A DNA stretch of 64,000 bases from Candidatus Moraniibacteriota bacterium (GTDB lineage Bacteria > Patescibacteriota > Minisyncoccia > Moranbacterales > JAPLXC01). The notes below the pieces were generated by a model. The model worked only from the letters and a program-made list of their open reading frames with translations, was not told where the DNA came from and did not search any database. A program made the position numbers and the translations under genes. The stretch spans positions 1,193 to 65,192 of the forward strand of contig JAPLXC010000004.1 of assembly GCA_026396275.1 (NCBI GenBank). The letters run 5' to 3'. This document shows positions 3,434-18,469 of the stretch, one piece after another. Position 1 is the stretch's first letter; each line of letters begins with the position of its first letter.

Positions 3434-4744
3434 ATGGTAAACCCAGTCATCACAATAGAAAATCTTCGCGTTATCTACAACCAGGGAAAATCCAACGAAA
3501 CCCGTTCTCTGGACGGAGTCAATCTTAAAATATTTCCCCGGGAGTACATTATCGTTCACGGTCCTTCTGGTTGTGGCAAATCAACCCTTCTTTATTCTAT
3601 CGCCGGATTGCAAGCACCGACCTATGGAGAAGTGACAATTGAAGACAAAAAACTTTCTCAAATGAAAGAGCGGGAAAAAGTGGAACTTCATCAGGTGGGA
3701 GTGGGAATGATTTTTCAGGCCTTCTATTTAATTTCCTCATTGAGTGTGATTGATAATGTTTGCCTCCCCCGGGTTTTTCGCGGTGAAGATCCGGAAAAAA
3801 GAAAAAGTGATGCCTTGGTGCTTCTGCGCCGGTTTGGAATTGCGGAGCAAGCCAATAAATTCCCCGGCCAGCTTTCCGGAGGGCAAAAACAGCGAGTAGC
3901 AATCGCTCGCGCTCTAATAAATAACCCCCAGATTATTTTGGCCGATGAGCCCGTGGGAAATTTAGATAGTGAGTCAGCGGAAAGTGTGCTCCAGATCCTA
4001 AAGGAACTAAATGAAGTCGACAAAAGAACGATAATTATGGTTACTCATAACTCTGAATATTTGCATTATGCTGATCGAGTGATTCACATGAAAGATGGGA
4101 TCATTGTCAGCTTGGAAGTAATTGAAGAAAAAAGACCTATCTCAGTGGTGAAAGAAGAAGTAGCCATTCAACCTGAAGAAATTTCCACTGATTTAAAACT
4201 ATTAATGCGAATGTTTAAAAATCTTTCTCCTCAACAAGCCGGGGTCTTGATTGTTCCTTTTAAGGCCAAACAGCTTCTTTCTCACGTGGTGTCAGAATTT
4301 ACTGAAGAACAGCTGACTTCAGCGGAAAATTATTTGAAAGAGTTTCTCTTTCGCAATATCGATATCAAGGAACTGGAAAAAAGCTTGGATCTTGATTATG
4401 ACGAAGGCGGAGCCGGATGGAATAAAAGAAGAGCCATTGCCTTTGCCCAGCGAGTAAGACAAATAATGAATCAGGTAGAGGCGCTCACAGCTAATCCGGA
4501 AACCGCTGCCAACACTTTTTCTGACTATCTTCTTGAACACTTTAATATTAAACTCAGCGATGATATCAAATTGCGGTTTCGCTCCTTTATTAAGTTAAGA
4601 ATTGACAATAAAATAGACCGTTTCAGCTTGCAGCAGCGTTTGGATACCCCCAAGATATTAGGAGGAATAGGACTGTATAAAACAACAGCTGAGAAAGTAG
4701 TGCGGGAGATAGAAGTGGTAATGTTGCTTAAATATTCAGCTTAA
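3434..4744 (+). CDS. ABC transporter ATP-binding protein (FtsE/MacB/LolD-like) with an unusual ~200-aa C-terminal extension
   Basis: Walker [10 protein letters not shown], signature [15 protein letters not shown] and Walker B ILADEP are present. The C-terminal half has no recognisable motif. Confidence 0.85.
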
Positions 4745-6806: not shown

Positions 6807-6937
6807 GAGATTAAGTAAAAAACTGATTGTTCCAGATAACTACGATCGCTGCCAAGTAGAATAATTGTTTTTGGCAAAGTCGGCTTTATAAAATCTTCCT
6901 TTTGACGGAGGGTTTTTTTGTTGATAAACTTAATAGT

Positions 6938-9889
6938 ATGGAAAAATACAACTCGCGGAAAATAGAGAAAAAGTGGCAGAAGAAATGGGAAGAAAGCGGA
7001 ATTTACAAGAATTACAAAAAAGACAAGAAATTCTACGCTCTTGATATGTTTCCTTATACCTCCGGCGAGGGTTTGCACGTGGGCCATCCGAGAGGATACA
7101 TCGCCACTGATGTCGTTTCCCGTTTCAAGATGCTTCAGGGAGCAAGCGTTCTTCATCCGATGGGATGGGACGCTTTTGGCTTGCCAACAGAAAATTACGC
7201 CATCGAGCATAAAATTCACCCGCGGATCGTGACCGAAAAAAATATTTCTGTTTTTAAAAAACAGCTTCAAATGTTTGGTTTTACCTATGATTGGGATCGG
7301 GAGATTAATACAACGGATCCGGGATATTACAAATGGACGCAGTGGATTTTTTTGAAAATGTTTGAAAAAGGACTGGCTTATGAGTCGAACGAGCCGATTA
7401 ACTGGTGCCCCTCCTGCAAGACAGGGCTGGCGCTGGAGGATTTGGAAAAAGGATTATGCGAACGTTGCGGAACGCAGGTAGTGCAGAAAAAAATGAGACA
7501 GTGGGTTTTAAGGATGACAAATTATGCTGATCGTCTGCTTTACGATCTGGACAGCGAAGATCTAGATTGGGAGGAGCAGATTTTAGAACAACAAAGAAAC
7601 TGGATCGGGAGAAGCGAGGGAACAGAGTTCAAGATGCCAGTTGTCATTGCGAGCGAAGCAAAGCAATCTCGTACAGAAGAATCAAATTCAGAGATTGCCG
7701 CGTCGCCTTCGGCTCCTCGCAATGACATCTATATTGAAGTTTATACCACCCGTCTGGATACGGCCTTTGGGATGACATATGCAGTAGTAGCACCGGAACA
7801 TCCAATCGTCGCTTCGCTTCTCAAAATCAAAAATCAAAAATCAAAAATCAAAAATATTGAAGAAATTAGAAATTATATAATCCGGTCACAGAATAAAACA
7901 GAGCTGGAAAGAATGGAGGCAAAGGAAAAAACAGGAATGGAAATTAAAGGAATAAAAGTTATAAATCCTTTCACTAATGAGGAAATTCCGTTATTTGTTG
8001 CCGATTATGTTTTAGGCCACTACGGCACCGGCGCAGTGATGGCTGTGCCAGCACACGATGAAAGGGACTGGGAATTTGCGAGGAAATATAATTTACCCAT
8101 AAAACAATCAATCGTTCCAAATTACAGAGAATATGAAACTACAATAAAGACCCTAAATGCACTTAGAGAAATCTATAGAGCAGCTGAAAAAAAAGACTTA
8201 AGATTTTGGCTACTTGGCGGACTAGCTTGCGCTTTTTATGCGGGAATAATTTATAGGGAACACAATGATTTAGATTTAATTACCGAAAATGAAAATGACC
8301 GTATTAAAATGTTTCAATTATTGGAAAATTTGGGATTTAAAAAAATAAAGGAGAAAAAAATATCAGAAAATCTCATCAACTTTGTTTATCAACGAGGAGA
8401 AATTGAAGTTGATATTGGACCCAATCAAGGCGAATTTGGTTTGGCTGGTGATTTTGAGGAAGATATTAAATATCTAGGAGAATACCAGTCAAGAGTATTA
8501 AGCAAACGATTTGTCAAAAGTTTTAAAGAATATCAGTTGAAGACTAGAGATGAAAAAAAAGACCAAATAGACGTGGAATATTTAAGTGGTAAAGTTTTGA
8601 TTGATGATGAAGTATTGGTTAATTCTGAAAAATATTCAGGACTAACTTCCCAAAAAGCCCGAGAGGAAATGGCAAAGTGGCTGGAGAAACAAAGAATCGG
8701 CAAGAAAAAAATAAATTACAAAATGCGTGACTGGGTGTTTTCCAGACAGCGTTACTGGGGAGAACCCATTCCCATAATTCACTGCGAGAAATGCGGTGCA
8801 GTAGGGGTGCCGGAGAAGGAATTGCCTGTTACTTTGCCGGATGTTGAAAGTTACGAGCCGACCGGGACGGGCGAATCGCCACTGGCGAATATCAAAGATT
8901 GGGTGAACACCACTTGTCCCAAATGCGGCGGACCGGGAAAAAGAGAAACCAATACTATGCCTCAATGGGCGGGCTCCTCCTGGTATTATCTTCGCTACAT
9001 TGATTCAAAAAATGAAAAGGAACTTGTTGGAAAAAAAGAAGAAAAAAAGTGGATGCCGGTGGATCTCTATGTGGGCGGGATAGAACACGCTACTCGTCAT
9101 CTTCTCTACGCACGATTCTGGCACAAGTTTTTATACGATATTGGTGTTGTTTCCACAAAAGAGCCGTTTAAAAAATTAGTTCACGTCGGGCTCATTGGCG
9201 GAGAGGACGGCAGAAAAATGTCCAAGCGCTGGGGCAATGTCGTCAGTCCTAACGACGTGATAGAACAATTCGGAGCGGACTCAATCAGATTGTATGAAAT
9301 GTTTATGGGGCCTTTCACCCAGGGTATTTCATGGAGTACGGCAGGGGTAAGTGGGATGAGGAGATTTTTGGAGAAAGTATGGAAATCGCAAAATCGAATT
9401 ATGAATTACGAATCAGGAATTAAGAATAACGTTGAAAATTTATTGCATAAGACAATCAAAAAAATAACAGAAGATATAGAAAATTTCCGATTTAATACCG
9501 CACTAAGCTCGATGATGATATATATTAATCAACTTGAGAAACAAAAGAAAATATCCATGATTCATTATTCACAATTCCTAATTCTATTGAGTCCCTTCGC
9601 CCCCCATATCGCCGAAGAGCTATGGGAGAAACTAGGACACAAAGAAAGCATATTCCGGCAGTCCTGGCCGAAGCATAATCCGCAATTGATAAAAGACGAG
9701 GAAATAGATCTGGTAATCCAAGTCAATGGAAAAGTCCGCGACACTGTTAAAGTATCAGCCGATATTTCCGAAGATGAAGCGAAAAAACTAGCCTTTGAAA
9801 ATCAAAAAGCAAAAACCTTTACAAAGGAAAAAGTAATTAAAAAGGTCATTTTTGTAAAAGGCAAGTTAATTAATATCGTAGTTTCTTAG
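6938..9889 (+). CDS. leuS: Leucyl-tRNA synthetase with an embedded ~165-aa nucleotidyltransferase-like domain and two short repeat-derived insertions
   Basis: HIGH motif (HVGHPRGY), KMSKR, and the zinc ribbon CPSCK...CERCG are present. Likely start is the second Met (MEKYNSRKIEKKW). An extra segment with W..GG...R.H.D.D motif lies between the CP1 domain and the body. Confidence 0.9.
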   Translation: MEKYNSRKIEKKWQKKWEESGIYKNYKKDKKFYALDMFPYTSGEGLHVGHPRGYIATDVVSRFKMLQGASVLHPMGWDAFGLPTENYAIEHKIHPRIVTEKNISVFKKQLQMFGFTYDWDREINTTDPGYYKWTQWIFLKMFEKGLAYESNEPINWCPSCKTGLALEDLEKGLCERCGTQVVQKKMRQWVLRMTNYADRLLYDLDSEDLDWEEQILEQQRNWIGRSEGTEFKMPVVIASEAKQSRTEESNSEIAASPSAPRNDIYIEVYTTRLDTAFGMTYAVVAPEHPIVASLLKIKNQKSKIKNIEEIRNYIIRSQNKTELERMEAKEKTGMEIKGIKVINPFTNEEIPLFVADYVLGHYGTGAVMAVPAHDERDWEFARKYNLPIKQSIVPNYREYETTIKTLNALREIYRAAEKKDLRFWLLGGLACAFYAGIIYREHNDLDLITENENDRIKMFQLLENLGFKKIKEKKISENLINFVYQRGEIEVDIGPNQGEFGLAGDFEEDIKYLGEYQSRVLSKRFVKSFKEYQLKTRDEKKDQIDVEYLSGKVLIDDEVLVNSEKYSGLTSQKAREEMAKWLEKQRIGKKKINYKMRDWVFSRQRYWGEPIPIIHCEKCGAVGVPEKELPVTLPDVESYEPTGTGESPLANIKDWVNTTCPKCGGPGKRETNTMPQWAGSSWYYLRYIDSKNEKELVGKKEEKKWMPVDLYVGGIEHATRHLLYARFWHKFLYDIGVVSTKEPFKKLVHVGLIGGEDGRKMSKRWGNVVSPNDVIEQFGADSIRLYEMFMGPFTQGISWSTAGVSGMRRFLEKVWKSQNRIMNYESGIKNNVENLLHKTIKKITEDIENFRFNTALSSMMIYINQLEKQKKISMIHYSQFLILLSPFAPHIAEELWEKLGHKESIFRQSWPKHNPQLIKDEEIDLVIQVNGKVRDTVKVSADISEDEAKKLAFENQKAKTFTKEKVIKKVIFVKGKLINIVVS
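7643..7726. mobile_element. MITE-like palindromic element family A (GTCATTGCGAGCGAAGC...CTCGCAATGAC), 84 nt, in-frame inside leuS
   Basis: Terminal inverted repeats gtcattgcgag / ctcgcaatgac. Encodes VIASEAKQS... in the leuS frame and SLRGAEGDAAIS on the opposite strand, the usual signature of this repeat family. Confidence 0.6.
7823..7855. repeat. (AAAATCA)x4 heptamer tandem repeat, in-frame in leuS
   Basis: Direct read. Encodes KIKNQKSKIKN. Same repeat occurs in rnhB and the GT4 gene at 48093. Confidence 0.7.
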
Positions 9890-13128: not shown

Positions 13129-13965
13129 ATGCTAAGCGAAGTTTTGCAATCAGTAGTGCTGGGAGTTGTACAGGGATTAGGAGAGTTTTTGCCAATTTCT
13201 TCAACGGCCCATTTAATACTTGTACCCTATTTTTTCTGCTGGAAAGATCTGGGATTGGCTTTTGACGTGGCGCTGCATATCGGGACGCTCATTGCCGTAT
13301 TAGCATATTTTTATTCTGATTGGATTAAAATTTTTGATCTGGCGATTGATAATTTAAAATTAAAAAAAGCAATTTGCAATAATTCACTATCCCGCGGCCG
13401 CGGGATAATGTACAATCGGAATTTATTGTGGTTTTTGGTTATTGCCACCATCCCTGGGATACTAGCTGGATATTTTTTGGAAGAAAAAGCGGAAACAATT
13501 TTTCGCAGTCCCTTGCTTATCGCGTTCACGCTGGCTTTTTTTGGACTCATACTCTATCTGGTTGACCGCCGCGTTCAGCATAAAAAAACACTGGGAGAAA
13601 TCACTTCTTTAGATTCAATTATTATCGGCCTCTCTCAAGCCATAGCTATTATTCCGGGAATTTCTCGATCCGGTGCCACTATTACGGCGGGGCTTTTCCA
13701 AAAATTGGACCGGGTAAATGCTGCTCGGTTTTCATTTCTTCTTTCCACTCCGATAATTTTCGGGGCGGCAGTGTTTAAGCTTCCTCACCTTTTTCGCGAA
13801 GGAATAAATATTGCCATGGCAGTCGGCGTGCTAACCTCCGCCATTAGCGGATACCTAGCGATAAAATATCTTTTGAAATTCGTACAGAAATCAAGCTATG
13901 CAATTTTCTTTTGGTATCGCTTGGTATTGTCACTGGCAATAGTTCTTGTTTATTTTTTGAAGTAG
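13129..13965 (+). CDS. uppP: Undecaprenyl-diphosphatase
   Basis: GLGEFLPISSTAHL motif and a multi-TM profile. Confidence 0.85.
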   Translation: MLSEVLQSVVLGVVQGLGEFLPISSTAHLILVPYFFCWKDLGLAFDVALHIGTLIAVLAYFYSDWIKIFDLAIDNLKLKKAICNNSLSRGRGIMYNRNLLWFLVIATIPGILAGYFLEEKAETIFRSPLLIAFTLAFFGLILYLVDRRVQHKKTLGEITSLDSIIIGLSQAIAIIPGISRSGATITAGLFQKLDRVNAARFSFLLSTPIIFGAAVFKLPHLFREGINIAMAVGVLTSAISGYLAIKYLLKFVQKSSYAIFFWYRLVLSLAIVLVYFLK

Positions 13966-13973
13966 TTTCGCAG

Positions 13974-14209
13974 TGGGCACACCAAGATTCGAACTTGGGA
14001 CCTCGTCATTATCAGCTTGCCCCGCACTAAAATTCAATCTTTGTTTATACTTTTAGTGGGCGATGGAAGACTCGAACTTCCGACCTCGTCATTATCAGTG
14101 ACGCGCTCTAACCAACTGAGCTAATCGCCCAAATACTTCTTGAATTTTTAGTGCGGGGTGAACGCTCTATGCCTGCCGGCAGGCAGGTAACCAACTGAGC
14201 TATGTGCCC
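13974..14209 (-). tRNA. Interrupted tRNA-Ile(GAT)-like gene: 5' part (14163..14209) and 3' part (13974..14019) separated by ~139 nt that contain a complete tRNA-Ile. Possible intron-containing or split tRNA, or a pseudogene
   Basis: The 5' part reads GGGCACATAGCTCAGTTGGTTA, then a 20-nt insert holding a 16-nt perfect palindrome, then GAGCG. The 3' part reads CTGATAATGACGAGGTCCCAAGTTCGAATCTTGGTGTGCCCA. Acceptor (GGGCACA/TGTGCCC) and T-stem pair perfectly. The insert is flanked by CCCCGCACTAAAA / TTTTAGTGCGGGG. The 5' strand of the anticodon stem is not cleanly recoverable. Confidence 0.4.
14057..14130 (-). tRNA. tRNA-Ile (anticodon GAT), intact, nested inside the interrupted tRNA locus
   Basis: Manual fold: acceptor GGGCGAT/ATCGCCC, D-arm GCTC-AGTTGGTTA-GAGC, anticodon arm CGTCA-CTGATAA-TGACG, T-arm GGAAG-TTCGAGT-CTTCC, discriminator A. 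No encoded CCA. Confidence 0.85.
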
Positions 14210-14216
14210 TTATCCG

Positions 14217-14289
14217 TGGACCGTGCCGGAATCGAACCGGCTGCCTCCGCAGTGCAAATGCGGCGCTCTACCAGGTGAGCTAACGGCCC
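14217..14289 (-). tRNA. tRNA-Ala (anticodon TGC)
   Basis: Manual fold: GGGCCGT-TA-GCTC-ACCTGGT-AGAGC-G-CCGCA-TTTGCAC-TGCGG-AGGCA-GCCGG-TTCGATT-CCGGC-ACGGTCC-A. Confidence 0.85.
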
Positions 14290-14365
14290 TGCGAGAGGCT
14301 TATACTTAATAAAATAACACTAAAAGCTATTATAACCAATTTTTTCAATTTGTCCAGATCCCAAT

Positions 14366-14704: not shown

Positions 14705-14795
14705 ATAACTCGAATATCCCGAAAAATTAAACCGAATGACCCGAAAATTTTTTCGAATCATTCGGGTAATAATTCGCAGATTCGGGTTATATTAC
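14703..14795. repeat. Tandem degenerate AATTCGGGTA / CGAAT..CCCGAA motif array just upstream of nusG
   Basis: Four to five imperfect copies read directly. A related array lies at 40600..40670. Confidence 0.5.
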
Positions 14796-14799
14796 AAAA

Positions 14800-15345: not shown

Positions 15346-15507
15346 TAGGTATGGCTATCCCGCACCAATTCCGAACATAGTTTTACGTAAAGTAAAGTTA
15401 TATCCACGGAATCGCCTGCGGCTTAGTTCTGGTAATTATTAAATTTTTACAATGAATTAGTGCGGGATGCTCATTTTTTTAGCTACTCACTACGCTCATA
15501 GACAAAA

Positions 15508-15930
15508 ATGGCAAAGAAAATCAAAACAGTGGTAAAATTGCAAATTCCAGCCGGAAAAGCTACTCCAGCTCCTCCTATTGGGCCGGCCTTAGGCCAGCAT
15601 GGACTGAATATCCAGGATTTTTGCGTGAAATTTAACGAAAAGACAAAAGACAAAGGAGAAGATGTTATTCCAGTGGAAATCACCATTTACGAGGACCGGA
15701 CTTTTGAATTTATTATGAAAACTCCTCCGGCGGCGGAACTTCTCAAAAAAGCGGCTGGCATTGAAAAAGGAGCGGCTAATCCCTTGAAAGACAAGGCGGG
15801 AAAAGTGACCAAAGAGCAAATTCGCCAAATTGCCCAAACCAAAATGGCCGATCTTAATGCCAATGATATTGAAGGAGCGGAAAAAATTGTAGAAGGGACG
15901 GCAAGGAGCATGGGGATAAAAATAGAGTAA
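15508..15930 (+). CDS. rplK: 50S ribosomal protein L11
   Basis: [27 protein letters not shown]. Confidence 0.9.
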
Positions 15931-16814: not shown

Positions 16815-17831
16815 ATGAATATAAAGGTAAGGAAGATAAGGGAAGATGCTAAAGTTCCAATTAGGGCATCTGATGGTGCAGTAGGATATGATGTTTTTGC
16901 TTCAAGGGTACTGGATAAATTTACCAAGGAAGTAATTCAGGATTTGCCGGTAGAAATACTTGGTGGCGCTAGTGTATTAATCGGTATTGGAGTAAAAATG
17001 GCTGTGCCCTGGCCGTATGAGTGCCAAGTTAGACCCAGGAGTGGTCTTGCGAGTAAATTTGACATCGAACTTTCTAATTCTCCAGGAACAATAGATCCCG
17101 ACTTCAGGGGCGAAGCAGGTGTTCTTTTGAGAAATAGAGGAAAAGAAACTTTTGTTGTGGAAAAGAATATGAGAATTGCTCAATTAATTTTCTCTAAAGT
17201 CGAAATCCCGATTTTAGAAGAAACGAAAGAGCTCCCTGCAACTAGGAGGGGAACTGGCGGTTTTGGATCAACAGGACTTCATGGAGATGGATTAGGGACT
17301 GATGAATATAATGAATACATAAAAGAAATGGATAGGTATTATATGAGAGTGGTTCTTGCAGTAGCGGATCGCTCCACATGTGTCAGGGGGGTAAAAAAAG
17401 TAAATGGTAAATATGAAAGAGATAAAAAGGGAAAATTGGTTGGCCAGAATCGCAGATTCGGTTGTGTGATTGTGAAGAATGATAATATCCTTGCTCAAGG
17501 TTTTAATGACCAATATTACGGTTCTCCAAAATGTGCTGACGCAGGATGTTTGAGGGAGGAGTTGAATATTCCCTCTGGTACGCAAATTGAAAAATGCAGA
17601 GCAATGCATGCCGAGTGGTGGGCATTCACTAATGCAGGTAAAATGGATAGCTCGCCGACACTTAAAGGTGCTACTGTCTATGTCAATGCGGAACCATGCG
17701 AAATATGCGCAAAGATGATTGTTGGTTTTGAGATTGATACAGTTGTTTTACTAAAAGGTATTTATCCAACTAATGGCATCAGGATTTTAAAAGAAGGAGG
17801 AGTGAATATAAGGTATATTGAAATTAATTAA
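16815..17831 (+). CDS. Fusion protein: N-terminal dUTPase-like domain plus C-terminal dCMP/cytidine deaminase zinc-binding domain
   Basis: N-terminal half has dUTPase motifs (GYDVFAS, GTIDPDFRGE, RRGTGGFGSTG). C-terminal half has the deaminase signature HAEWWA...PCEICAKMI. Confidence 0.7.
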   Translation: MNIKVRKIREDAKVPIRASDGAVGYDVFASRVLDKFTKEVIQDLPVEILGGASVLIGIGVKMAVPWPYECQVRPRSGLASKFDIELSNSPGTIDPDFRGEAGVLLRNRGKETFVVEKNMRIAQLIFSKVEIPILEETKELPATRRGTGGFGSTGLHGDGLGTDEYNEYIKEMDRYYMRVVLAVADRSTCVRGVKKVNGKYERDKKGKLVGQNRRFGCVIVKNDNILAQGFNDQYYGSPKCADAGCLREELNIPSGTQIEKCRAMHAEWWAFTNAGKMDSSPTLKGATVYVNAEPCEICAKMIVGFEIDTVVLLKGIYPTNGIRILKEGGVNIRYIEIN

Positions 17832-17944: not shown

Positions 17945-18469
17945 ATGGCTAAAAAAGCTTTAAAAAAGAAAAATAAAAAGAGCGAGGAAAAGTATATTCG
18001 TCCGTCTTGGGATGAGTATTTTTTAGATCTAGTAGAAGCTGTTGGAAAAAGAGCTACCTGTGATAGAGGGAGAACAAGCTGTATAATTGTTCGCGAAAAA
18101 AGAATTCTTTCCACCGGTTATGTCGGTTCACCAATCGGAGCCAAGCACTGCGACGATGCGGGGCATGAGATACACACGGTTATCCAAGAGGATGGCACTC
18201 AATCTCGGCATTGCATCAGAACCAGCCACGCGGAGCAGAATGCTATTGCCAATGCTGCCAGATTCGGTATGCCTCTGGAAGGCGGAACACTTTATGCCCA
18301 TATGGCTCCCTGCTACACTTGCGCCAAAATGATTATAAACTCCGGGATAAAAAGAGTGGTCTGCCGGGTTGATTATCATGGCGCCAAACGCGCTAAAGAA
18401 ATTTTCAAGGAATGCGGGATTGAATTTGAACAGATTGAAGATAAAATGCAAACTTATAAAGATATGTAA
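17945..18469 (+). CDS. dCMP deaminase (ComEB-type)
   Basis: HAEQNAI...PCYTCAKMIINSGIKRVV. Confidence 0.8.
   Translation: MAKKALKKKNKKSEEKYIRPSWDEYFLDLVEAVGKRATCDRGRTSCIIVREKRILSTGYVGSPIGAKHCDDAGHEIHTVIQEDGTQSRHCIRTSHAEQNAIANAARFGMPLEGGTLYAHMAPCYTCAKMIINSGIKRVVCRVDYHGAKRAKEIFKECGIEFEQIEDKMQTYKDM

Follow-up and report, generated by a model that had tools for sequence, protein, structure and literature searches.

A tRNA-Ile gene enclosed by the halves of another in a Candidatus Moranbacteria genome, and the recurrence of such nests in Patescibacteria

Transfer RNA genes are known to be interrupted or invaded in several ways. In archaea, tRNAs can be encoded in pieces, as in the split tRNAs of Nanoarchaeum equitans and the tri-split tRNAs of Caldivirga, or can carry one or more introns of the bulge-helix-bulge (BHB) type. 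Patescibacteria carry group I introns in tRNA anticodon loops at position 35/36 (PMC13011429). In phage T4, the GIY-YIG homing nuclease SegB can recognise a motif of tRNAs and promote the inheritance of a region with tRNA genes (PMC2330249). Integrative elements that target tRNA genes displace a 3′ fragment running from the anticodon loop, a classic integration signature that is common in prokaryotes (PMC9897764). Here we describe a locus that resembles each of these systems in part. It lies in a 64-kb stretch of chromosomal DNA (the window) from a bacterium of the candidate phyla radiation (Candidatus Moranbacteria), represented by a single contig of a metagenome-assembled genome (MAG). On its minus strand, an intact tRNA-Ile(GAT) gene is enclosed by an inverted repeat and, outside that, by the two halves of another tRNA-Ile gene. 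The explanation that we favour, with moderate confidence, is that a repeat-bounded cassette carrying a replacement tRNA split the resident tRNA-Ile(GAT) gene, the halves of which persist as relics. That the architecture belongs to a recurrent and fast-turning-over family of nested tRNA genes in Patescibacteria is well supported. Full-text literature searches found no published description of tRNA-in-tRNA nests, and the family is apparently undescribed.

Read on the minus strand, the order is tRNA-Ala, a 5′ tRNA-Ile portion, the inverted repeat enclosing the intact tRNA-Ile(GAT), and a 3′ tRNA-Ile portion (Table 1); we call the two outer portions the shell and the whole arrangement a nest. A preliminary description of this DNA had given the same order, and every element it listed was found at its coordinates. 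The insert is 143 nt long, 74 of them tRNA, and is located at 31/32, the boundary between anticodon stem and loop. The perfect inverted repeat of 13 nt that had been reported is present, and with a single A bulged out it reaches 18/19 nt; among 2000 dinucleotide shuffles of the 651-nt region, 0.45% contained a perfect repeat of at least 13 nt within 400 nt. The 5′ part of the shell is 86% identical to the 5′ end of the inner gene (its nhmmer match covers Ile model positions 1-22), and the 3′ part is 82% identical to the inner 3′ half (nhmmer E 4.8e-10). The latter contains the anticodon loop CTGATAA, the stem 3′ strand TGACG, a variable loop, a CCAAG/CTTGG T arm, the acceptor strand TGTGCCC and a discriminator A. 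Pairing between the two parts is complete in the acceptor stem (7/7, GGGCACA/TGTGCCC), the D stem (4/4) and the T stem (5/5), and the acceptor and T stems of the inner tRNA (GGGCGAT/ATCGCCC and GGAAG/CTTCC) both differ from those of the shell. The earlier claims of perfect acceptor complementarity and of a distinct, compensated T stem thus hold, and with them the view that the outer portions are the two halves of a former tRNA-Ile gene that is distinct from the inner gene and not a decayed copy of it. The anticodon-stem 5′ strand had likewise been described as not intact: only 3/5 pairs form, and the strand is one nucleotide short. A further feature, passed over in an ellipsis of that description, is a 20-nt insert in the shell D-loop (CCTGCCTGCCGGCAGGCATA).

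The inner gene is presumed to be functional, and its role as the supplier of tRNA-Ile(GAT) is well supported. In every nest locus that we compared (the window and 14 others), the innermost copy alone reaches the Rfam tRNA threshold, and the shell of the window matches no Rfam tRNA model even at E<=10. The shell is very probably a non-functional relic of a distinct gene.

The same architecture, in which TTCA is followed by YCCCGCAY on the left and RTGCGGGR is followed by CAAG on the right, occurs in at least 12 other Patescibacteria lineages. Loci were drawn from 80 Moranbacteria species representatives fetched via NusG (L001-L080) and from a metagenome scan with the right-junction pattern, which returned 11 contigs, 10 of them true nests. 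The nests enclose Ile, Ala or Lys tRNAs, reach a depth of three layers (L081, L086), and have outer shells that range from perfect to half-deleted or chimeric. In their general form, the outer 5′ half ends in GAGC(A/G)TTCA (ACCTCA in L081, ACGTCA in L082) and is followed by YCCCGCAY and a variable stem; then come the intact tRNA-Ile(GAT), the complementary stem, RTGCGGGR, CAAG, and CTGATAATGA... with the rest of the outer 3′ half. The GAGC(A/G)TTCA junction is identical in five loci (L045, L085, L088, L090 and L096). The junctions of TTCA with CCCCGCAY and of GTGCGGGG with CAAG also bracket tRNA-Ala inside tRNA-Ala shells (L086, L087, L098), where the interruption falls after position 35 and two loop nucleotides are absent. 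Nest remnants follow tRNA-Lys genes in L085, L090 and L096, and CAAG stands after the repeat in Ala and Lys nests too. Within the 80 Moranbacteria representatives, 35 have an Ala-Ile pair in the fetched region, in either orientation relative to nusG, and tRNA fragments accompany the intact genes in at least 10 of these 35 by nhmmer and in more by eye.

The two arms of the repeat covary. Over its first 12 pairs, 98% of positions are paired across 10 lineages, 5/12 pairs have changed on both sides, and 0/500 shuffles match this. G-U and A-C combinations, an asymmetry between which would bear on selection at the RNA or the DNA level, occur once each, a number too small to be informative. In the 64 kb of the window, the paired motif occurs only in the nest and in the stem of a putative leader between nusG and rplK. 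Two other CCCGCAC pairs (41481/41624 and 57907/58105) were set aside as chance, as they lie inside long open reading frames (ORFs) without extended complementarity. The shells and arms, in turn, are found in many states of erosion. The cassette of L045 is that of the window, with the same repeat, spacer and junctions and a compensated change from C-G to U-A at the stem base, and little of the 5′ half is left in its shell, which carries two further hairpin insertions. L035 and L015 retain only the right arm, CAAG and the 3′ half, L087 lacks the left arm, and shells are half-deleted in L045, L035, L015 and L087. Two pseudo-Ile 5′ parts are present in L077, and the outermost shell of L081 keeps a perfect anticodon stem (CCTCA/TGAGG) around the insert. 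The 20-nt palindromic insert of the window recurs at the same position in the D-loop of L096, L021 and L087 and in the shell T-loop of L045 and L090. Shell palindromes (CCCGCCnnGGCGGG, CCTGCCTGCCGGCAGGCAGG) resemble the bases of the repeat with the interior absent, and empty versions of the family-A hairpin stand in the shell variable loops of L045, L086 and L087.

Comparison of the locus in closely related genomes shows how the parts have been shuffled. NusG was rejected as a guide to close relatives: it is too conserved, at 88-94% identity across the phylum, and its best matches have other synteny and no tRNAs nearby. Relatives were found instead through UppP. Three have a UppP 68-73% identical to that of the window and the same glmS-uppP-secE-nusG order, and each has a different configuration at this locus. 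The first (L096) has an Ile nest with the D-loop palindrome of the window and the GAGCGTTCA junction; its shell acceptor is mismatched (5′ GGGCGAT against 3′ CACACCC, 4/7 pairs). The second (L098) has an Ala nest with a window-type tRNA-Ala shell, plus a simple tRNA-Ile. The third (L101/L102) has an Ile nest at 35/36 with a different repeat (CCTGCCCGCC.../...GGCAGGCGGG) and a perfect shell. Sequence identity crosses these configurations. The shell 3′ half of L096 (42 nt) is contained at 100% in the working tRNA-Ile of L098. The shell of L101 differs at 2 positions from the inner tRNA of the window and is identical to its own inner tRNA outside the acceptor stem, and a single compensated pair separates the inner tRNA of L101 from the L098 tRNA. 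Between the window and L096, the shell 5′ parts agree at 50/52 nt through the D-arm, palindrome, junction and repeat core, and match at only 4/7 positions in the acceptor strand. Finally, the same cassette sits in different shells, both in the window and L045 and in L096 and L087.

The mosaic of window and L096 is the pattern that would be expected from co-conversion tracts. Together with the occurrence of one cassette in different shells, such mosaics argue that incoming nest DNA recombined with a tRNA gene already in place, and not that a local duplicate decayed slowly. This suits one of the two possibilities that the preliminary description had left side by side, a pseudogene left where a small element carrying a tRNA had inserted: the same cassette occupies different shells, shells are half-deleted or mismatched, and the L096 3′ half equals the L098 gene. 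It is likely that the cassette is, or was, mobile. The events could have run as follows. A resident tRNA-Ile(GAT) gene would have been split at 31/32 by a cassette with TTCA and one repeat arm to the left of a complete tRNA-Ile(GAT) and the second arm and CAAG to its right. The inner tRNA would be released by RNase P and 3′ processing, and the shell RNA would be a by-product. The repeat stem may keep the inner tRNA from folding together with the homologous halves of the shell, or it may mark a cleavage site or direct processing. Spread between genomes may proceed by homing-like gene conversion through the conserved tRNA sequence on both sides, driven in some lineages, perhaps, by small GIY-YIG nucleases fused to tRNA-Ile copies. 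Each arrival would hit the copy that is currently working, and nests of the Russian-doll kind would result.

An alternative that needs no foreign cassette is local duplication followed by decay: partial tandem copies of tRNA-Ile would flank the gene, and the repeat and palindromes would be repair scars, left for example by fold-back synthesis. Tandem partial copies do exist, as in the two pseudo-Ile 5′ parts of L077 and the three repeats of an ORF with a 3′ fragment in L264. The L101 shell equals its own inner tRNA except in the acceptor stem, and loop-less perfect palindromes, such as CCTGCCTGCC joined to GGCAGGCAGG, look like the products of hairpin-capped break repair, if that inference is right. 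However, the differences between shell and inner gene are fully compensated and concentrated in the acceptor and T stems, which is not expected of neutral decay. The same junctions and repeat core also occur in distant lineages around different isoacceptors, and the L096 shell 3′ half matches the working gene of another species and not its own inner gene. We regard local duplication as unlikely.

Could the shell instead still yield a tRNA? Complementary flanks that bring two tRNA halves together had suggested an archaeal-type split or BHB-intron tRNA. The RNA of the locus is predicted to fold as a cloverleaf within a cloverleaf (-87.4 kcal/mol, z = -4.0). At the junctions of this fold, a helix of 3 bp (GUU/AGC) is separated by a 2x2 internal loop (CA/CA) from the repeat helix of 13-18 bp; no BHB (3-nt bulge, 4-bp helix, 3-nt bulge) can be drawn there. 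In an alternative with the anticodon stem formed, 0 nt are unpaired on the 5′ side and 11 on the 3′ side (CAAG and CTGATAA). The archaeal comparison fails on two further counts: excision restores no tRNA, and an intact tRNA-Ile(GAT) is already present inside. An intron-aware tRNA search, proposed at the outset, was run with the intron mode of ARAGORN on the native region, and it called the inner gene only. ARAGORN also rejected the shell with the cassette removed and accepted it only once the 20-nt D-loop insert had been taken out as well. Rfam gave no intron or ribozyme family in the window at the gathering threshold, around the nest at E<=10, or in the 14 nest loci, and no other non-tRNA family covers the nest; weak matches to Plastid-ycf2, miRNA and snoRNA models were dismissed as tRNA antisense or AT-rich hairpin noise.

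A functional interrupted tRNA could nevertheless be made in another way. The repeat would join the outer halves, a bacterial endonuclease and ligase or cuts of the RNase III type would excise the insert, and each transcript would give two tRNA-Ile; the shell join could then be, for example, GAGCGTTCA to CTGATAATG. The perfect complementarity of the outer acceptor and T stems in the window, the covariation of the repeat and the stability of the nested cloverleaf speak for it. So do the L101/L102 shell, which is a perfect tRNA-Ile without its insert at 35/36, the perfect outermost anticodon stem of L081, and the fact that shell insertions are all hairpins and all in loops. Introns at 35/36 are also known from tRNAs of Patescibacteria, though they are of group I (PMC13011429). 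Against it, excision in the window leaves a 3/5 stem that is one nucleotide short, together with the 20-nt D-loop insert, and the product is the one that ARAGORN rejects. The window shows no BHB geometry, and no ribozyme or intron family was found in it or in the 14 nest loci. The Ala nests have lost two loop nucleotides, so a precise junction never gives a tRNA, and shells are truncated or mismatched in L045, L035, L015, L087 and L096. An intact isoacceptor copy always lies inside, which makes the shell redundant. On balance a functional interruption is improbable, and equally so the corollary that the insert is an intron of a new kind, a bacterial tRNA intron with a second tRNA in it. We also give little credence to a narrower version, in which the insert is removed from RNA in at least some lineages (L101/L102 and L081 being the candidates) by a route neither of BHB type nor of group I, with window-type shells as later stages.

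The displaced 3′ fragment calls to mind yet another origin. An integrase-bearing island could have integrated in the anticodon loop of tRNA-Ile and been deleted almost entirely, with the 3′ fragment as its right attachment site (attR). A 3′ fragment displaced from the anticodon loop is the signature that such elements commonly leave in prokaryotes (PMC9897764), and L015 and L035 show just an intact tRNA, a spacer and a 3′ fragment. But conventional integration regenerates a hybrid tRNA and leaves no separate 5′ half upstream of a complete inner gene. Between the repeat arms there is no integrase ORF or remnant, and the space amounts to only 113 nt, 74 of them tRNA; the 41 nt from the intact tRNA-Ile to the 3′ fragment likewise hold no ORF. 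The element has the same tiny size in all lineages, and its ends are inverted and not direct repeats. An island scar is thus very unlikely. That the nest is an artefact, a chimeric join of two strains' tRNA-Ile alleles in the MAG, seems extremely improbable. The window is a single MAG contig, tRNA repeats can confuse assemblers, and the nest of L021 contains an N-gap. Identical nests, however, came from independent assemblies that differ in sample and pipeline (L082/L083/L084; L088/L091; L101 from JGI and L102 from Logan; L098 from NCBI and L099 from Logan). The repeated tRNA parts of the window are only 82-86% identical and too divergent to collapse, and an ordered, symmetric layout with an 18-bp inverted repeat is unlike a misassembly.

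If a replacement cassette did split the resident gene, its means of spread may be hinted at by nuclease genes tied to tRNA-Ile in relatives. An 86-residue GIY-YIG ORF (PF01541) starts 1-3 nt past the intact tRNA-Ile in L021, L028 and L049. Its last codons and stop are provided by a tRNA-Ile-like D-arm, a hairpin of the CCCGCC..GGCGGG type and the TAA of the anticodon loop, and a copy of the tRNA 3′ half follows. Further homologues that were examined have the same ORF-tRNA-Ile arrangement in four other neighbourhoods, and the relatives with tRNA-linked GIY-YIG ORFs comprise L021, L028, L049, L058, L096 and L262-L271. In L028 and L021, the GIY-YIG unit stands between matching outer halves (GGGCTTA/TAAGCCC and GGGCGTA/TACGCCC, respectively). 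Positions 1201-2100 of L264 hold three perfect tandem copies, with a 298-nt period, of the GIY-YIG ORF plus tRNA-Ile-like D-arm, hairpin and 3′ half; they come directly after an intact tRNA-Ile, with a hairpin-riddled pseudo-tRNA-Ile upstream. The link is not confined to isoleucine. In L096, a small GIY-YIG ORF of a different kind (3807-4027 on the minus strand of the locus) has its TAG stop inside the 5′ acceptor/D region of a tRNA-Lys(TTT). After this tRNA come TTTGTGCGAGAGCAAG, a hairpin and a duplicate of the tRNA-Lys 3′ part, a remnant that L085 and L090 also carry. For the window locus, a connection to GIY-YIG nucleases and homing is circumstantial. That the cassettes spread by homing-like recombination with GIY-YIG involvement is a tentative proposal. 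It is likewise doubtful, though more likely than removal of the insert from RNA, that they form a dedicated class of mobile element with a hairpin-recognising enzyme of its own and are not passengers of homologous recombination.

Several observations weigh against a mobile replacement cassette. First, the locus offers no machinery of its own: phmmer against the six-frame translation of the 64 kb found no homologue of the tRNA-linked GIY-YIG ORFs, and neither the nest nor its vicinity holds a gene for a nuclease, transposase or integrase. Second, carriers and intermediates were not seen. Viral contigs yielded no cassettes (pattern scans of IMG/VR turned up only chance matches in GC-rich phage ORFs without tRNA context, and blastn against GenBank phages gave ordinary tRNA similarity only), and no polymorphism of empty and filled sites was seen within one species. 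Third, parts of the nest resemble an RNA under functional selection. The repeat is kept by compensation, and shell insertions are confined to cloverleaf loops as self-contained hairpins. The shell stems of L081 and L088 covary and both have the odd T-loop TCCGATT, and the L101 shell becomes a perfect tRNA after removal of the insert. Lastly, one repeat family brackets Ile, Ala and Lys cargo, which simple homologous homing does not explain, and the assignment of the inner gene and not the shell as the newcomer draws on the sequences of a few genomes only.

Table 1. Parts of the tRNA cluster in the window, in minus-strand order.
Feature	Position	Strand	Remarks
Promoter-like site upstream of tRNA-Ala	14329..14356	-	TGGACA-16 nt-TATAAT; 11/12 consensus matches
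tRNA-Ala(TGC)	14217..14289	-	Intact, first gene of the cluster; ARAGORN, Rfam 65.3 bits
Spacer between tRNA-Ala and shell 5′ part		-	CGGATAA
Outer shell, 5′ part	14188..14209	-	GGGCACATAGCTCAGTTGGTTA; acceptor 5′ strand GGGCACA, D-stem 5′ strand, D-loop AGTTGGTTA
D-loop insert of shell	14168..14187	-	20 nt, CCTGCCTGCCGGCAGGCATA; core a perfect 16-nt palindrome
Left junction	14159..14167	-	GAGCGTTCA; shell D-stem 3′ strand and defective anticodon-stem 5′ strand; conserved
Inverted repeat, left arm	14140..14158	-	CCCCGCACTAAAAATTCAA
Left sequence named in the preliminary description	begins at 14158	-	CCCCGCACTAAAA
Spacer, left arm to inner tRNA	14131..14139	-	GAAGTATTT, 9 nt; L045 version nearly identical
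Inner tRNA-Ile(GAT)	14057..14130	-	Intact; ARAGORN, Rfam 74 bits; every stem perfect
Spacer, inner tRNA to right arm	14038..14056	-	19 nt
Inverted repeat, right arm	14020..14037	-	TTGAATTTTAGTGCGGGG
Right sequence named in the preliminary description	ends at 14020	-	TTTTAGTGCGGGG
Right-junction tetranucleotide	14016..14019	-	CAAG; invariant in 10/10 aligned lineages
Outer shell, 3′ part	13974..14015	-	CTGATAATGACGAGGTCCCAAGTTCGAATCTTGGTGTGCCCA; CTGATAA...TGTGCCCA

The genes around the nest are, in order, leuS, a gene of the Sua5/TsaC family, glmS, a UPF0047 gene, uppP (13129-13965), secE, nusG, rplK and rplA. ARAGORN and Rfam call only two tRNA genes in the 64 kb, tRNA-Ala(TGC) and the inner tRNA-Ile(GAT); uppP and secE flank the pair, and the minus strand encodes both. 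The NusG of the window is 88-94% identical to proteins of Candidatus Moranbacteria MAGs, and its UppP is 100% identical to a protein of one Moranbacteria MAG at NCBI, encoded on a 76-kb contig. The TGGACAAAT...TATAAT motif upstream of tRNA-Ala is kept in relatives, and no comparable promoter-like site precedes the inner tRNA-Ile. A single promoter upstream of tRNA-Ala is the probable source of tRNA-Ala, shell and inner tRNA-Ile; because this is the lone strong promoter-like site and none lies before the inner gene, the cluster is probably one transcript. The order of Ala before Ile is constant in L001-L080, about 0.4-1.5 kb upstream of nusG, and orientation relative to secE-nusG varies by species. 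Since either orientation occurs among Moranbacteria species, the small Ala-Ile cluster has been inverted or re-inserted repeatedly.

Other features of these loci deserve mention in their own right. The nusG-rplK spacer (window 15357-15510, plus strand) contains a conserved structured element of about 110 nt with the closing stem TCCCGCACCAATTC.../...GAATTAGTGCGGGA, and after it a hairpin in which the rplK start codon is sequestered. The element is found in about 10 Moranbacteria loci, 11/26 of its pairs covary, it has no Rfam match, and it is a probable leader of the L11 operon; a sequence of 8-13 nt is common to its closing stem and the inverted repeat of the nest. Between secE and nusG (window 14705-14799) lies a long AT-rich hairpin, CCGAATGATTCGAAAAAATTTTCGGGTCATTCGG, and related hairpin repeats (cgaatgaca/ttcgtagattcg) fill the nusG-rplK spacer in L001, L013, L015 and L022. 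After tRNA-Ala, four loci have a conserved insert of 110-190 nt (...cttgaacgggaaagggtcggaaaacgggagttttccgttggagg...; L001 3279-3493, L004 3324-3509, L009 3264-3391, L016 3255-3372), past which the last ~16 nt of tRNA-Ala are duplicated (gtcctgtccggtccac); this insert is either another type of tRNA-flanking relic or a small structured RNA. The opposite strand carries 16S rRNA genes at a distance of 1.2-1.4 kb from the tRNA-Ile nests in L081 (9075-11670) and L082 (2325-4195). These genes are 2596 and 1871 nt long, respectively, against a model of 1533 positions, which implies insertions of about 1.0 and 0.3 kb. The leucyl-tRNA synthetase ORF of the window (6902-9889, plus strand, 995 aa) has weak Pfam matches to the nucleotidyltransferase families PF10706 and PF14907 at residues ~414-505, just past the editing domain, which suggests that this segment is an inserted domain. 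Directly after rplA, an ORF combines a dUTPase domain with a dCMP/cytidine deaminase domain (16815-17831, plus strand), and a second, stand-alone deaminase ORF comes next (17945-18469, plus strand).

If the nests do arise from self-replacing cassettes, they would offer a way around an obvious constraint: an insertion that destroys a single-copy essential tRNA gene should be lethal, and a cassette supplied with a replacement copy escapes this fate and is itself open to later invasion. Such re-invasion would explain the layered nests. The highly reduced genomes of the candidate phyla radiation would then have a new way of turning over tRNA genes and replacing them horizontally, and tRNA-Ile genes would be linked to a GIY-YIG nuclease family of 86 residues. 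The cassettes would also account for the tRNA fragments with odd hairpins around tRNA-Ile, Ala and Lys genes, which pose a practical problem for annotation. The nests would provide natural bacterial cases in which complementary sequences divide a tRNA gene in cis, and these bear on the long-running debate about the origin of split and intron-containing tRNAs.

How, then, does the nest compare with the systems described at the start? With archaeal split and BHB-intron tRNAs it shares complementary GC-rich flanks that join the halves, an interruption in or beside the anticodon arm, and the possibility of several interruptions per gene. It differs in its bacterial host and in having the halves in cis around a complete second tRNA; it has no BHB, excision restores no canonical tRNA, and the interrupted gene is redundant. 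The group I tRNA introns (PMC13011429) are likewise insertions in the anticodon region within the same phylum, the L101-type nest falls exactly at their position, and some of them carry homing endonuclease genes. Unlike them, the nest has no group I core, more than half of its insert is tRNA, and its ends form one long helix. Elements of the MITE and REPIN kind (miniature inverted-repeat transposable elements and REP doublets forming hairpins) are also short non-autonomous units with terminal inverted repeats, of 18/19 nt in the present case, and the empty hairpins of L045, L086 and L087 recall them; the nest, in contrast, has a functional tRNA as cargo, is confined to tRNA loops and is not dispersed through the 64 kb. 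Integrative elements that target tRNA genes (PMC9897764) compensate for the disruption of their target and displace a 3′ fragment from the anticodon loop, whereas the nest carries a whole tRNA, leaves a 5′ half too, has inverted repeats and no integrase, and measures only ~140 nt. The free-standing homing of SegB (PMC2330249) is matched by the small GIY-YIG ORFs tied to tRNA genes in relatives, by a mosaic compatible with co-conversion, and in outcome by the replacement of a recipient tRNA region. The nest of the window, however, like most of the others, has no nuclease gene inside, its host is cellular and not a phage, and SegB-type homing itself has neither a gene-in-gene layout nor a covarying inverted repeat.

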